A DNA stretch of 64,000 nucleotides, taken from Myxococcota bacterium. GTDB lineage: Bacteria > UBA10199 > JADFYH01. The translations under genes and the position numbers were made by a program. Below the pieces are notes generated by a model. That model ran no database searches, was not told where the DNA came from, and saw only the letters and a program-made list of their open reading frames with translations. Shown in pieces: positions 54,904 to 58,550 of this stretch; position 1 is the stretch's first letter, and every line of letters begins with the position of its first letter. The DNA lies in the NCBI GenBank assembly GCA_052034865.1, contig JBPOIC010000014.1, positions 1 to 64,000 of the forward strand, given 5' to 3'.

Positions 54904-55536
54904 TCACTTAATGGACCCTGGCATTTTTTTAGGACCAAGATGTGGAGGAGGTTTGGAAGGTATGGCGGTTTGAGTCACACCTGCCTGTGGAGTTTTTTGA
55001 TTCTGAAGATTGCGTTTAATGGCGATGACCAATGATCGCGCGCGGTTGGCGTAGCTGCTGCGGCCTTCAGGGTCTTTGACGATCGCTTCACGAAAATCTT
55101 CGGCCGCTTTGCGAAAATTTTTGTGCAAAAGATAAATTTCTCCACGATGAACGCGGCTGGAAATATCGTCGGGGTTGTAGCGCAGGGCCTCTGAATATTC
55201 GAAGACGGCCTCCACGAATTTTTTCATCTTCTGATAAACACTTCCCAAAGCCGCATGGTAATAAAAATTGCGGTTATCCATTCTGACCAAACATTCAAAA
55301 ATGCGTTTGGCTTCATCGATGCGCCCATAAGTCATTTTTAAATGACCCATTTCGGCGACCTGAAAGAGATCTTTTTGGGGAATGCCGGTGAGCTCGGCGT
55401 AGGAAATCTCTTTGGTAAAATACTTGTAGAAGAGTTCGATGACGTACTTCTTGCGTTGAGGCGTTGGGTCGAAAATCTTGTTCTTCGCCTCGCCCGATAA
55501 ATTCGAGTATTTTAATCGATTCTGAAGTTCGCTCAA
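54904..55536 (-). CDS. TPR-type class II type III secretion chaperone (LcrH/SycD/CesD family)
   Basis: Three TPR units that align with Yersinia SycD: LxxISxxxLxxxxxxAxxxYxxGKxxxAxxxFxxLxxLDHxxxxxxxxLGAxxQxxxxxxxAxxxYSxAL. TTG start with AAAGG RBS. Confidence 0.7.
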   Translation of the reverse strand: MSELQNRLKYSNLSGEAKNKIFDPTPQRKKYVIELFYKYFTKEISYAELTGIPQKDLFQVAEMGHLKMTYGRIDEAKRIFECLVRMDNRNFYYHAALGSVYQKMKKFVEAVFEYSEALRYNPDDISSRVHRGEIYLLHKNFRKAAEDFREAIVKDPEGRSSYANRARSLVIAIKRNLQNQKTPQAGVTQTAIPSKPPPHLGPKKMPGSIK

Positions 55537-55573
55537 GGGGACCTTTAGTCTTTATCCCGAAGGATAGTGAAAA

Positions 55574-56608
55574 TTATCGGATATTATTACTGATCGTACG
55601 CACTGCTTGTGCATTGATATCCATAATGGATTTAATCATTTCCAAAAATTCGTTTCGCTTGGTCTGCATCGTGCGGATGTTGTCTAACAGCTCTTTCTCA
55701 TCTCCCTGAACGTCGCCTAACCTTTGCTGAAGGATATAGAGTTTTTTGGCTCCTTCCGGAGTGGTGGCATCAATGCCTTCCAACTCTGCCATGAGTTGTT
55801 GCTTGAGCTGCTTCATGGCCTGAAGATCGGCAAGGGCATTTCCCGTGACATTCTTATATTTTGATTCGTAACCCAAGGCGGCTTCCAGCCATCCATACGC
55901 AGGGTTATCCTGAGCAAAGTTTTGGTGCAGATAATCCGCCTCTTTGTGAATATCTCCATAACCGTAACCCGTTCCATAACCTGCGCCTGGAGGTGGCCCC
56001 GGAGGTGCTGGAGGAGCGCTGGGGGCATCATACCCGCCACCCGTAGACATTCCCTTTTTGCTGCTAATAACATTTTCATCTTCCCAACCTTCGAGATCCC
56101 ACTCTTCTCCGCTTTCGGGTGGGTTTGATGTTTCGCTTTTATAAGGAATAGGGTTTTGGCTGGGCTGCTGAACGACCTTTGTGGCAGACTCAGAGTAAAA
56201 CAGAAGGTGAAGGGCCTTGGCCTGATCTTTGGTGATAAGACCTGTTTTGGCGGCGACTTCGATGTTATTTAAAAAATCTTTGGGAAGACGTTTGCCATCA
56301 TCCAGAGTAAGCCTTGAGGTATCCCGAGCTTCAAAATGGGTTTCATAAAACTCGGAGGGATGTTCCAGTTGAGCCGGAAGGGCTTTGACATCCTTTTCGA
56401 CCATGCGATCACTTAAGGTCGTCATGTACTCACTGGCAGATCGCAGATAGGCCGTAATTGCAGGCCCCAGCTCTTTAAGGTCCATGCCCATTTTCTGGAG
56501 GGCTTTGTCGACGGCCTTGGTATCGACCTGCTTTAAGGCTTCACGGGCTGTACTATCGACACGACTGTTGATGGCTGTGAAAGTCTGGTTTTGAACTGCG
56601 CGTCCCAT
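55574..56608 (-). CDS. Hypothetical hydrophilic protein, candidate T3SS substrate (Gly/Tyr/Pro-rich linker)
   Basis: 344 aa, no TM segment. Central low-complexity stretch PPAPPGPPPGAGYGTGYGYG, coiled-coil C-terminus. Sits between two LcrH-class chaperone genes. Confidence 0.4.
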   Translation of the reverse strand: MGRAVQNQTFTAINSRVDSTAREALKQVDTKAVDKALQKMGMDLKELGPAITAYLRSASEYMTTLSDRMVEKDVKALPAQLEHPSEFYETHFEARDTSRLTLDDGKRLPKDFLNNIEVAAKTGLITKDQAKALHLLFYSESATKVVQQPSQNPIPYKSETSNPPESGEEWDLEGWEDENVISSKKGMSTGGGYDAPSAPPAPPGPPPGAGYGTGYGYGDIHKEADYLHQNFAQDNPAYGWLEAALGYESKYKNVTGNALADLQAMKQLKQQLMAELEGIDATTPEGAKKLYILQQRLGDVQGDEKELLDNIRTMQTKRNEFLEMIKSIMDINAQAVRTISNNIR

Positions 56609-56684
56609 GGGGTGATCCTTTCTTGGACTAGCACTCTAAAAATTCCCACATACACTCCCAAGGAGGGAGAGTCATAAAAACTTC

Positions 56685-57320
56685 TCACTTCTTTTGCTTC
56701 TGAATTTCTTCTTCAATTTTCTTCTTTAAAAATCGCGCCCGTACTGCCCAGGAGTTTTTGCTCGCCGGGTCGAGGACAATCGCGGAATTTAAATCATTTA
56801 AGGCCTCTTCGTTATTTTGAACCTTGTACCAAACTTCGCCTCGGTTGGCATAAGCAGCGACTTGCTTTGGATCAAAAAATAGGGCCGTCGAGTATTCTGT
56901 CAAGGCATCGAGCCATTTTGACTGACGTTGGTAAATGGCGCCCAAAACCAGGTGGTAGTAGGGTTGGCGATGATCAAGCCCACTGAGTCCTTTAAAAACC
57001 AACTCTGCTTCTTTGAACTTTCCTCGCTTGAACTGGAGGTGCCCAAACTCCGCCATTTTAAAAAGATGGGTCGGAGAAATTCCTTTCAGTTGAGCCCAAT
57101 TGATTTCTCCCTGGATAAACTTCTCAATTTGCTGAGCTAACTCTTCGGTTTGTTTTGGATCGATCGAATCGAGCAGGGCAATAAACTGACTTAAACGCTC
57201 GTTATTTTTTTTCCATTGCTCTGGGTTCTTTTTTTCTGCCTCAGCCTCGAGTTGTTTTTCGTGTGCCAGCTCTTCGGGTGAAAGACCAGCATCGGGATCG
57301 AATGGTAAATCCTGAGTCAT
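56685..57320 (-). CDS. TPR-type class II type III secretion chaperone (LcrH/SycD family), paralog 2
   Basis: The segment LKGISPTHLFKMAEFGHLQFKRGKFKEAELVFKGLSGLDHRQPYYHLVLGAIYQRQSKWLDALTEYS matches the SycD core. It also parallels 54904-55536. Confidence 0.7.
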   Translation of the reverse strand: MTQDLPFDPDAGLSPEELAHEKQLEAEAEKKNPEQWKKNNERLSQFIALLDSIDPKQTEELAQQIEKFIQGEINWAQLKGISPTHLFKMAEFGHLQFKRGKFKEAELVFKGLSGLDHRQPYYHLVLGAIYQRQSKWLDALTEYSTALFFDPKQVAAYANRGEVWYKVQNNEEALNDLNSAIVLDPASKNSWAVRARFLKKKIEEEIQKQKK

Positions 57321-57500
57321 AAAGTGGCTCCAAGAGAAATTTTTGATTGGTTTCAGTTAGTTGTTCTCAACCAAAAAATACCTTAGTGAACTCCTCTGGG
57401 AGCCGCAATAGCTTTATTGGAAAAGAACTGAGTTGAAACACTCTCCAAGAGCAGCCAGAAGACTTTAAGAGACATCGTCTTCCAACAAAGATCAAAATAA

Positions 57501-58550
57501 TTAGCCGTGATTGATGATACGGCTCAGTGTGCGATTGTCAGCCTCACTGTAAGAGGACGAAAACTCATACGCGGTGTTGATCCAGCGTTGCATTTCCTGC
57601 AACTGTTCAGTGAGGTTGCGAACGGTGTCCTGAGACTCAGACATCTCCTGGCTCGTAATCTGCATCATCTGATTTTCTTCCTGGATTTTATTCTGCTCGC
57701 GAGCAGCGGCCTTCGGATTACTATTATCACCCGTGACCTGCGTTTTGCGTTCTCCCATCCTCATGATCAAACGGGATCTCATATCTTTTACATCACACAT
57801 TTTCTGAAGAATGCTTCGCTGAAAAGGTCGTAACTCTCTTACCATCTGGCGGGTGTATTCCTGGATGGCTCCCACGATGTCTCCCATCATGAATAAAAGC
57901 ATAACCTTGTTCATCATGGTTTTCATTTTGGCATCAGCCTTTTTCAGGTCGCTTTTTTTGGCGTAAAGCTCATCCTTCATGTTTTGCTGATTTAGCTGAT
58001 CGAAGACATCGGTGTAAGTGGTTGCAGGAGCATCACTGGAATCGCTGGTGTACCAAGTGTTTCCAGTGGTGGAACTGCTGCCTCCCTTGAGGGTCTTGAA
58101 AGCGGTTTGAGGGCCTGGGAATGTAGATTGAGAGGTTGGAAGATCGGTGGATTCGCTAATGCCATAACCCATTTCTTTTTTGATTTGAGATTCTAAATCC
58201 TGTTGGGCGGGTGTGGGGACATCGGCGCCCTGACTCATGTGAGCAGGGGTGTCGTCGCCGTAAAGCATTTGCTGGAGCTGACCTACATAGGCTTTGAAAG
58301 TGGTTCCATCTTTGTTGAGCAGGGTAACGACCTGGTTAGGATCGTTGCCGGCCAGTTTTAAGGCCTGTTTGGCCTGGGCTTCATTGTCGAGCTGACTTAC
58401 ATCTTCTAGCCACAAGTCTTCTTTAGCCTCCTGCTTGGAGGCTTCTTTTTTTTCGGCAATATATCTTGAGCTGGAGTAGCTGGTATCTTTTGAATAGCTT
58501 TCTTGAACAGGGGGAGGGGTGTTTCCTGAAATCGTTTTGGATGAAGCCAT
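57501..58550 (-). CDS. Hypothetical hydrophilic protein, candidate T3SS substrate
   Basis: 349 aa. Ser/Thr-rich disordered N-terminus, one short hydrophobic patch (KVMLLFMMGDIVGAIQEY) and a C-terminal coiled coil. AAAGGAG RBS. Sits immediately downstream of fliR. Confidence 0.4.
   Translation of the reverse strand: MASSKTISGNTPPPVQESYSKDTSYSSSRYIAEKKEASKQEAKEDLWLEDVSQLDNEAQAKQALKLAGNDPNQVVTLLNKDGTTFKAYVGQLQQMLYGDDTPAHMSQGADVPTPAQQDLESQIKKEMGYGISESTDLPTSQSTFPGPQTAFKTLKGGSSSTTGNTWYTSDSSDAPATTYTDVFDQLNQQNMKDELYAKKSDLKKADAKMKTMMNKVMLLFMMGDIVGAIQEYTRQMVRELRPFQRSILQKMCDVKDMRSRLIMRMGERKTQVTGDNSNPKAAAREQNKIQEENQMMQITSQEMSESQDTVRNLTEQLQEMQRWINTAYEFSSSYSEADNRTLSRIINHG

Follow-up and report, generated by a model that had tools for sequence, protein, structure and literature searches.

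Two divergent LcrH/SycD-like chaperone genes interleaved with two candidate client genes in a flagellum-like type III secretion locus of an uncultured Myxococcota bacterium

Introduction

In the class II chaperone operons of type III secretion systems (T3SSs), such as lcrH-yopB-yopD, ipgC-ipaB-ipaC and pcrH-popB-popD, a tetratricopeptide repeat (TPR) gene of the LcrH/SycD type sits inside a T3SS cluster beside genes for coiled-coil proteins of about 300-400 amino acids. The chaperone gene usually precedes its clients, and the minor translocators YopD and IpaC have a single hydrophobic segment. Chlamydia has two LcrH paralogs, Scc2 and Scc3, with the clients CopB/CopD and CopB2/CopD2, and the pair Scc3-CopN joins an LcrH-type chaperone to a client without transmembrane (TM) segments. 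Here we describe a locus of this general layout in the window, that is, the whole stretch of 64,000 nucleotides analysed (contig JBPOIC010000014.1, positions 1 to 64,000, assembly GCA_052034865.1) from an uncultured soil bacterium of the Myxococcota. On the minus strand of positions 54904-58550 lie four open reading frames (ORFs), Y349, TPR2, X344 and TPR1, in that order; an earlier note, made from the letters of the sequence, had correctly placed these four ORFs and given the two adjoining partners as 344 and 349 amino acids.

Class II chaperones bind a client hexapeptide, P/VxLxxP, which is held in an extended form through its positions 1, 3 and 6 (PMC3443056; PMC13466201). In SycD, Tyr40, Phe44 and Tyr47 of helix H1A provide the peptide pockets and the hydrogen bonds to the client backbone (PMC3443056). 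A precedent for one chaperone per translocator exists in Edwardsiella, as cited in that paper (PMC3443056).

The second point of comparison is the Myxo group of T3SSs. Non-flagellar T3SSs are thought to derive from the flagellum via an intermediate that survives in the Myxococcales (PMC3459982; PMC12075869). The Myxo group is the earliest-branching non-flagellar T3SS and is described without secretin, SctF, tip or translocon, although the same paper allows that proteins of the last two kinds, if they evolve fast, may have escaped detection (PMC3459982). In Myxococcus xanthus the system, T3SS*, is termed needle-less and its effectors are reported as unknown (PMC10849154; PMC12075869), and the Myxococcus T3SS* is required for prey lysis (PMC12075869). 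This intermediate is described without needle, tip, translocon or any known substrate (PMC3459982; PMC12075869).

In this context, we give an even chance to the following reading of the locus: X344 and Y349 are predicted exported clients of TPR1 and TPR2, respectively, and once outside, their long helical hairpins would form a tip- or translocon-like coiled-coil assembly. The observations behind it are the anatomy of the genes, the paralogy of the partners, the synteny of the module, the family affinity of the chaperones, the predicted folds and the Sec-exported homologs of one partner.

A duplicated, putative client-chaperone module

Direct BLASTP detects no similarity between X344 and Y349, and their paralogy is visible only by profile-profile comparison. 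When the C-terminal domain of X is set against the Y family, hhalign returns 96.5% (E 9e-10, score 59.6), with loops and C-termini in register. Because coiled coils can yield spurious profile matches, controls were run: reversed alignments score 13-14, and 40 heptad-block shuffles give a mean of 19.5 (standard deviation 4.8, maximum 30.7). By these profiles, X and Y are remote paralogs that share a homologous C-terminal long helical hairpin. TPR1 and TPR2 are themselves paralogs with 37% identity. As both the C-terminal domains of the partners and the two TPR proteins are related in this way, the comparison indicates that the module is a tandem duplication of a client-chaperone unit.

The order sctT-Y-TPR2-X-TPR1 is found in every readable X-family locus, that is, in five others (L001, L002, L090, L091 and L094) that come from different assemblies or samples, L001 and L002 sharing an identical X-family protein. 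In these and the window, six loci in all, the TPR1 and TPR2 genes lie directly downstream of sctR-S-T, interleaved with X and Y. Y orthologs directly follow sctT in L001, L090, L091 and L094; TPR1 orthologs (57-75% identity) always follow X, and TPR2 orthologs (39-55% identity) always follow Y. Because this gene order recurs in five other loci, the pairing of chaperone and partner is, on comparative grounds, not chance.

The most divergent case is L091, where X identity falls to 26% across the full alignment and the order is still kept. This locus also keeps the FliM-like, FliN, FliO and sctRST genes together with YggT, ProC and YggS, and at 9049-13162 it carries a PEGA Ser/Thr kinase and a divergent FHA/sigma-54 activator, syntenic with the window. 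Because L091 retains both the module and its neighbours at such low X identity, we take the locus to be old and vertically inherited in its lineage. The G+C content of the window is even (43-49%) and unchanged at the T3SS cluster, and the genes elsewhere in the window are those of an ordinary chromosome, among them SecA, SMC, LigA and those for biotin synthesis.

The contigs JACCDN010513380.1 and JACCDN010487015.1 (L002 and L096; GCA_013558295.1) also carry a close relative of the locus; with over 500,000 contigs, their assembly resembles a highly fragmented metagenome, or else a eukaryote assembly with bacterial sequence in it.

The two chaperone-like proteins

TPR1 and TPR2 match the TPR models of Pfam (TPR_1, TPR_2 and TPR_11). 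Their best NCBIfam family is TIGR02552 (LcrH_SycD), which is matched over nearly its full length: E 1e-19 over model positions 3-132 of 136 for TPR1 and E 3e-19 over 2-128 for TPR2. The runner-up family reaches E 7e-9 (TPR1) and about 1e-6 (TPR2), and the TIGR02552 match is 12-13 orders of magnitude better than those of generic TPR lipoprotein or PilW models. The class III large-subunit model TIGR02508 (so designated in PMC13466201) is absent from the NCBIfam scan at E up to 0.1, where CdsG and SctY appear only at E about 0.03. In PDB sequence searches, chains of IpgC, PcrH, AcrH and SycD are found at E 1e-4 to 1e-6, ranked behind generic and designed TPR proteins. The earlier note's assignment of the two genes to the LcrH/SycD class is supported in so far as both are LcrH/SycD-like, and they lie inside a T3SS cluster after sctRST.

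We aligned nine TPR1/TPR2 sequences using MAFFT with SycD, PcrH and IpgC, these three entered by hand; 14 residue numbers given in PMC3443056 match the SycD sequence so entered. The class II core is about 150 amino acids long and consists of three TPRs and a capping helix, and the alignment runs through it over approximately SycD 20-160, with G50, A55, F59, L62, D66, L76, Q81, A89 and Y93 invariant and R146 nearly so.

Both proteins carry additions to this core. TPR1 orthologs (window 54904-55536; L090 3583-4203; L091 8336-8986; L094 7465-8097) have a strongly conserved N-terminal extension, DPTPQRKKYVIE[LM][LF]Y[RK][FY], and a basic Pro-rich C-terminal tail, neither of which occurs in SycD, PcrH or IpgC; the length of TPR1 when read from a TTG start agrees with those of its orthologs. 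TPR2 orthologs have a charged extension of about 40-60 residues, FDPxAGhoPEEL...NPE[LQ][WF][KQ]KN, which is partly missing in L091. These extensions could be docking elements.

The X family

A word-indexed search gives one relative each for X and Y. For X, an exhaustive profile search of 1.84 billion cluster representatives recovers 44 family representatives (35 at E up to 1e-10), mostly of 310-425 amino acids with a few shorter fragments and all known from metagenome-assembled genomes (MAGs) or metagenomes; a scan of the genome collection with an X-family pattern gave no match. The 38 aligned near-full-length members share one architecture: the N-domain is helical, a Gly/Pro-rich linker follows, and the helical C-terminal domain ends in ...IIRNxR.

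In X344, the low-complexity linker PPAPPGPPPGAGYGTGYGYG that the earlier note had pointed out in one of the partners is confirmed at residues ~199-218, and a PPPP core with Gly/Tyr-rich stretches recurs in the linkers of the family. The protein has no hydrophobic segment: its maximum Kyte-Doolittle mean over 19 residues (KD19) is 0.65, and none of the 38 family members reaches 1.6 (family maximum 0.99). In the AlphaFold2 model built on the family alignment, a helix at 236-277 and a 60-residue helix at 284-343 are joined by a short loop, with a predicted local distance difference test (pLDDT) score above 90. The loop reads ...D-x-x-x-P-E-G..., and its D and P, as well as N342, are nearly invariant in the family. 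The N-domain is helical at moderate confidence; its pLDDT stays below 50 over residues 1-14 and lies at 55-90 beyond them.

The best-kept stretch of the otherwise divergent N-domain is the motif [KR][AS][LVM]x[AG]x[VIL]xxPxx[YF], which is KALPAQLEHPSEF in X344. Its columns are kept to different degrees across the 38 members (P84 in 33, A/G79 in 35, V/I/L81 in 26 and K/R75 in 31), and the model places it in a non-helical, low-confidence loop. The X family has an N-proximal, extended hexapeptide that resembles P/VxLxxP and may parallel that of class II clients: in the core 79-AQLEHP-84, positions 3 and 6 fit, and position 1 has a small residue instead of P or V. As a class II chaperone-binding site this motif is suggestive only, and the suggestion is tempered by the missing canonical tyrosines of the chaperones (see below).

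The Y family and its relatives outside secretion loci

The N-terminus of Y349 is Ser/Thr-rich, as the earlier note had said of the second partner: 15 of its first 25 residues are S, T, P, N, Q or I. The N-terminal half of the protein is largely disordered (pLDDT mostly <60) and has no Sec signal peptide, and the N-terminal halves of five Y orthologs barely align and carry Gly/Tyr-rich stretches. Such Gly/Tyr-rich low complexity is seen just before the hairpin domain in both X and Y orthologs (GAGYGTGYGYG; GGGYGGGYGNYG; GGGYGGGWGGGG), located at 55955-56182 and 57993-58250 of the window and in the Y orthologs of L090 and L094. The composition recurs despite almost no conservation of the surrounding sequence.

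For the C-terminal half, AlphaFold2 predicts helices at 179-202, 207-235 and 238-270, an NSNP loop and a 70-residue C-terminal helix (279-348), with pLDDT of 70-89. Within the second of these helices, MMNKVMLLFMMGDIVGAI (residues ~207-229) has a KD19 of 1.41, with values of 1.46-1.82 in four orthologs and a conserved Gly-Asp in mid-helix; G223, D224 and A228 are nearly invariant across the Y family. This hydrophobic helix may be membrane-associated or buried in a helical bundle. The claim that both partners are TM-less thus holds for X344 and needs amending for Y349, which has this one borderline helix, while neither protein has a TM hairpin.

The Y domain is not confined to T3SS loci. A profile of the C-terminal domain finds 40 further proteins (E down to 1e-55), mostly of 180-255 amino acids, with no Pfam domain and no name (family members P0004-P0044; loci L003, L087, L088 and L089). 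Outside T3SS loci, about 25 of 41 Y-domain homologs begin with a Sec signal peptide, and most of the others look N-terminally truncated or mis-started. Their core, PPRAYAGxDPxxAARAQDRxARYTQFVQMSTQLMNELQNTEREL, is very strongly conserved. No T3SS gene and no TPR1/TPR2 homolog lies near these genes within the available flanks, and the G+C content of their loci is 57-69%, versus 41-54% in the T3SS lineage. In L089, a flagellin gene lies ~1 kb downstream of the Y-domain family gene.

The Sec signal peptides on relatives of the Y domain indicate that the domain acts outside the cytoplasm. No signal peptide is present on the T3SS-linked copies, which have instead a long disordered N-terminal half rich in Ser, Thr, Gly and Gln, a replacement that would be expected if these copies leave the cell via a type III gate.

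A model of the module and its alternatives

In the cytoplasm, TPR1 would hold X and TPR2 would hold Y, with one chaperone per client, thereby preventing self-association of the long C-terminal helical hairpins. X would probably be anchored by its extended 79-AQLEHP-84 segment, seated in the concave groove of the TPR protein, and the disordered N-termini of X and Y would serve as type III signals. After export via the adjacent type III apparatus, the paralogous hairpins, alone or together, would build a coiled-coil structure, located at the export gate or further out, that is functionally equivalent to the tip/translocon (middle-substrate) layer of an injectisome. The Gly/Pro/Tyr-rich linkers would be flexible spacers, and the single hydrophobic helix of Y a possible membrane-contacting element. 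Chaperone binding, secretion and assembly are what we infer here. The earlier view of the partners as plausible secreted substrates gains from the conserved synteny, the disordered N-termini (Ser/Thr-rich in Y349), the hexapeptide of X and the Sec-exported Y-domain homologs.

Several observations weigh against this model. TPR1 and TPR2 score 70.5 and 69.0 bits against TIGR02552, whose curated cut-off is 104.8, and in all nine TPR1/TPR2 sequences the H1A ladder of SycD (Tyr40/Phe44/Tyr47) is replaced by A/S/T, H/Y and M/L/F/I. Given the below-cut-off scores and the replaced ladder, despite alignment over the full core, we regard TPR1 and TPR2 as divergent LcrH/SycD-like proteins and not canonical members. 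Because the aromatic ladder is replaced, the canonical peptide-in-groove mode may not apply to them. On the client side, known class II clients carry TM segments and X344 has none, and no hexapeptide-like motif is conserved across the N-terminal halves of Y orthologs. The structural matches of X and Y are generic coiled coils without a significant E-value. Known operons usually put the chaperone gene ahead of its clients, and here it is ambiguous whether a TPR protein serves the preceding or the following gene. Finally, sctV, sctU, sctN, sctJ, sctD and sctC are outside the window, so that a machine reaching the cell surface is presumed in this model.

Familiar identities for X and Y were tried and rejected. 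No Pfam or NCBIfam family is found for either in scans of the window, nor any in Pfam scans of 38 X and 31 Y relatives. Profile-versus-PDB searches with the X N-domain, the X C-domain and the Y family return only coiled-coil noise (e.g. BST2, beclin and syntaxin-like chains), the X N-domain having no sequence relative in the PDB. The hydrophobic translocators (SctE/SctB) have one (minor) or two (major) TM segments; X has none at all and Y just the one borderline helix, which contains a conserved Asp, and neither has a TM hairpin or similarity to a translocator family. Beyond being fully hydrophilic in X and hairpin-less in both partners, the module departs from class II operons in giving each client a chaperone of its own, encoded behind it, in lacking the Y40/F44/Y47 ladder in chaperones below the family cut-off, and in having clients that are paralogs of each other and unrelated to any translocator family; the single hydrophobic segment of Y may be a point of likeness to the minor translocators.

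The earlier note had also offered tip proteins, gatekeepers and new effectors as candidates and FlgK, FlgL and FliD as remote-homology checks. Tip proteins (SctA) such as LcrV, IpaD/SipD/BipD and EspA are, like X and Y, hydrophilic with long coiled coils that include the C-terminal helix. They measure about 190-340 amino acids, and the C-terminus of EspA (...YRTISGISLGK) resembles that of X (...VRTISNNIR). A globular domain breaks up their coiled coils, unlike the contiguous hairpins of X and Y, and neither LcrV, IpaD/SipD nor EspA gives a match to X or Y in Pfam, NCBIfam, significant PDB sequence hits or solved folds. The tip-protein chaperones LcrG and CesA are not TPR proteins (PMC13466201). 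Gatekeepers (SctW; YopN/CopN, HrpJ) likewise give no Pfam or NCBIfam match and no significant PDB or solved-fold match, and FlgK, FlgL and FliD give no match in Pfam or NCBIfam at the thresholds used.

A different role for the same hairpins, which we consider unlikely, is that X and Y polymerise as axial proteins and replace a needle, filament or rod in a longer form, their C-terminal hairpins building a helical tube as in SctF, EspA and the flagellar axial proteins; the TPR proteins would then cap the C-terminal helix like the class III large subunit YscG/PscG and block premature polymerisation. As in the SctF systems with class III chaperones (YscF-YscE/YscG, PscF-PscE/PscG), a helix-Pro-loop-helix (X D-x-x-x-P-E-G; Y NSNP) and a TPR chaperone are present, and the C-termini of the X family (...IIRNMRQ) and of Y orthologs (...LIQGFRG, ...VIQAFRS) recall the ...IIQNFR of SctF, giving an II(R/Q)N(F/M)R-like ending. 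In addition, hhalign matches the loop and the C-terminus of X with those of SctF, class III large subunits are TPR proteins structurally like class II (PMC13466201), and Myxo-type systems lack a recognisable SctF, which makes a replacement plausible (PMC3459982). The similarity to SctF is nevertheless insignificant (with seven hand-entered needle sequences, hhalign gives X 7% and Y 0.9%), and we do not accept homology on this basis. Neither needle, EspA nor flagellin chains appear in the profile-versus-PDB searches at E up to 10. At ~345 amino acids, with large N-terminal regions, X and Y are four times the length of SctF (~80), a helix-PxxP-helix protein of 70-90 amino acids; there is no gene for a YscE-like small co-chaperone, for which the intergenic gaps are too small, and the TPR proteins match class II and not class III models. 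Less probable still is that X and/or Y are regulatory substrates or cytoplasmic partners (a SctW/CopN-like gatekeeper, a ruler-like factor or an anti-activator), with the TPR proteins as co-regulators like IpgC and SicA, possibly tied to the FHA/sigma-54 activator. The partners have the size and composition of gatekeepers (all-helical, TM-less, 340-350 amino acids), the genes of the FHA/sigma-54 activator and the PEGA Ser/Thr kinase are kept next to the module, class II chaperones work as co-activators of transcription, and the chlamydial gatekeeper CopN binds the LcrH-type chaperone Scc3. The chlamydial duplicates are also alike in placing two LcrH-type paralogs in one system, although their clients belong to Pfam families and X and Y have no such homology. 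Gatekeepers are helical bundles, unlike the one long hairpin predicted here; X, Y and their relatives match no HrpJ/SctW, TyeA or regulator family in Pfam or NCBIfam; the Y-domain homologs exported via Sec speak for a role beyond the cytoplasm; and a sigma-54 promoter search gives fewer matches than chance, with no enrichment in the window and no signal in the module.

That X and Y are late substrates, i.e. effectors or toxins for prey or host cells with dedicated chaperones, seems to us very unlikely. They do adjoin chaperones in a T3SS locus, their N-termini are disordered and their N-terminal halves evolve fast, and the related Myxococcus T3SS* is needed for prey lysis with effectors reported as unknown (PMC12075869). 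On the other hand, effector repertoires are normally variable and scattered over the genome, whereas X and Y are core genes with a fixed, syntenic position, present in every related locus down to 26% identity; they are mutually paralogous, contain no enzymatic domain and go with chaperones that are class II-like and not class I-like, so that the suggestion of new effectors loses ground. We give least credence to a purely positional linkage: on this view, X and Y would be coiled-coil proteins of the envelope or periplasm with a general role, and the TPR proteins would be generic scaffolds that have nothing to do with secretion. The Y domain is indeed widespread without T3SS genes, TPR proteins occur everywhere and the PDB sequence search ranks generic TPR chains above T3SS chaperones; yet all five other X-family loci have X after sctT together with both TPR paralogs, the signal peptide is lost in T3SS-linked Y copies, and the TIGR02552 match surpasses the generic TPR lipoprotein and PilW models by the wide margin given above.

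The surrounding secretion cluster

The features of the module and its surroundings are collected in Table 1. The secretion genes mix traits: a YscO-like sctO and a non-flagellar-type SctR (above the yscR and EscR cut-offs and below that of fliP) stand with FliO, a FliM-like SctQ and a separate FliN-like gene, while SctS and SctT are ambiguous between flagellar and non-flagellar models. Neither sctU nor sctV follows sctT. The cluster runs off the window at 64000. Related contigs stop at sctO or shortly after it, with the exception of L095, which keeps a partial sctN (the C-terminus of a SctN/FliI-type ATPase just upstream of sctO), from which the order sctN-O-P-Q is read. A metagenome scan anchored on the FliM-like protein gave short contigs, and the contig found for the sctT product measures 2.2 kb. 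Among the matches listed, which come from many phyla, the closest SctR in species-representative genomes is 48% identical, and none of the 80 loci of SctR relatives among these matches carries X or Y. Besides the X/Y paralogy, the hydrophobic helix of Y and the missing groove tyrosines, this FliO/FliM/FliN-containing non-flagellar setting had escaped the earlier note.

As judged from the part of the gene content at hand, the cluster resembles a Myxo-type non-flagellar T3SS, in a different, uncultured lineage. Ser/Thr kinase and sigma-54 regulator genes are associated with Myxococcota, and the PEGA kinase and the FHA/sigma-54 protein next to the module may regulate the system. As in the Myxo T3SSs and the needle-less T3SS* of M. 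xanthus (Abby & Rocha 2012, PMC3459982; Herrou et al. 2025, PMC12075869), a non-flagellar cluster retains flagellum-like parts, the order is sctN-O-P-Q...R-S-T, and no SctF, tip or translocon homolog is detectable (here in the partial cluster of the window). FliO inside a non-flagellar T3SS has been reported mainly from Myxococcota, where it is frequent and found in both systems of M. xanthus, and from some Pseudomonadota as well (PMC12403147). The published systems differ in being described without needle, tip, translocon and known substrates, and class II chaperones are unmentioned for them; the present lineage, at 41-54% G+C, is uncultured and known only from MAGs.

Two further details concern the annotation. 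The longest ORF of sctS (116 amino acids) overlaps the end of sctR by 55 bases. On the Logan contig L086 the gene call is 91 amino acids long, so translation of sctS probably begins within the longer ORF and yields 91 amino acids. A tRNA-Val (TAC) at 165-236 on the minus strand and a second tRNA clipped by the window start are the sole Rfam matches in the window.

Table 1. Coordinates of the module, its parts and the neighbouring genes in the window
Feature	Position	Strand	Description
Y349	57501-58550	-	Candidate T3SS substrate, 349 amino acids; Ser/Thr/Gly/Gln-rich low-complexity N half and conserved C-terminal helical domain
Y349 residues 1-186	57993-58550	-	Disordered, poorly conserved; putative secretion-signal and chaperone-binding region
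Y349 residues 187-349 (Y domain)	57504-57992	-	Conserved; AlphaFold2 pLDDT 70-89; 40 homologs; homologous to the X C-terminal domain (hhalign 96.5%)
Y349 residues 207-229	57864-57932	-	Sole moderately hydrophobic helix, motif hhMhhhMMGD[IV]VGA
TPR2	56685-57320	-	211 amino acids; LcrH/SycD-like paralog; 60-residue charged N-terminal extension
X344	55574-56608	-	Candidate T3SS substrate, 344 amino acids; helical N-domain, Gly/Pro/Tyr-rich linker, C-terminal long helical hairpin
X344 residues 1-142	56183-56608	-	N-terminal helical domain; residues 1-14 disordered, possible secretion signal
X344 residues 75-87 (KALPAQLEHPSEF)	56348-56386	-	Conserved motif [KR][AS][LVM]x[AG]x[VIL]xxPxx[YF]
X344 residues 143-218	55955-56182	-	Disordered linker containing PPAPPGPPPGAGYGTGYGYG; pLDDT <50
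X344 residues 219-344	55577-55954	-	C-terminal hairpin domain, ends ...RTISNNIR; AlphaFold2 pLDDT >90
TPR1	54904-55536	-	210 amino acids, TTG start; LcrH/SycD-like paralog; N-terminal DPTPQRKKYVIE motif, basic Pro-rich tail
sctT (FliR family)	58711-59553	-	Directly upstream of Y; PF01311 E 2e-48; SctT and FliR models score about equally
sctS (FliQ family)	59563-59913	-	NCBIfam; choice of SctS model, flagellar or non-flagellar, ambiguous
sctR (FliP family)	59859-60653	-	PRK12797 EscR/YscR/HrcR 255 bits, yscR 233 bits, fliP 206 bits
FliO-like gene	60729-61103	-	PF04347 E 2e-11
FliN-like (SctQ-C) gene	61266-61679	-	PF01052 E 5e-20
FliM-like SctQ	61679-62614	-	PF02154 FliM E 6e-24, 85 bits; fliM_switch 100.7 bits versus SctQ 17.7 bits
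SctP/FliK-like ruler candidate	62616-63479	-	Weak Flg_hook match E 1e-4, below cut-off; slot between sctO and sctQ conserved
sctO (YscO-like/FliJ-like)	63569-64000	-	PF16789 E 6e-12; frame still open at window end (base 64000)
FHA/sigma-54 enhancer-binding protein	53361-54764	+	Divergent, syntenic neighbour; Pfam families seen on L005 and L091; same position in L091; possible regulator
PEGA-domain Ser/Thr kinase	50210-53020	+	Divergent neighbour of the module

Significance

Chaperone-client pairs in T3SS loci are already well known. What the locus adds are two unannotated candidate client families, one of which (X) is seen here only in this type of T3SS, together with the paralogy of X and Y, class II-like chaperones with an altered groove and partners without a TM hairpin, a Myxo-like setting with flagellum-like parts, and the link to a Sec-exported family. 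If the client relation that we infer is right, this would be a case of class II-type chaperones serving clients without TM hairpins, and one extracytoplasmic coiled-coil domain would be routed via Sec or, apparently, via a T3SS.

X and Y are, in our view, the best candidates so far for exports of the 'needle-less' kind of secretion, and the locus yields exported-component candidates that can be tested and a profile with which to search myxobacterial loci. A bolder idea, to which we assign a rather low probability, is that they are the missing extracytoplasmic components of the basal 'needle-less' Myxo-type T3SS: a new distal structure built from two paralogous hairpin proteins, each with a class II-like chaperone, the domain having been recruited from a Sec-exported family or the reverse. 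If true, chaperoned 'middle substrates' would have been present in the earliest non-flagellar T3SSs, ahead of the appearance of needles, secretins and hydrophobic translocons, and there would be concrete candidates for the secreted products of the Myxococcus-type predation T3SS*.

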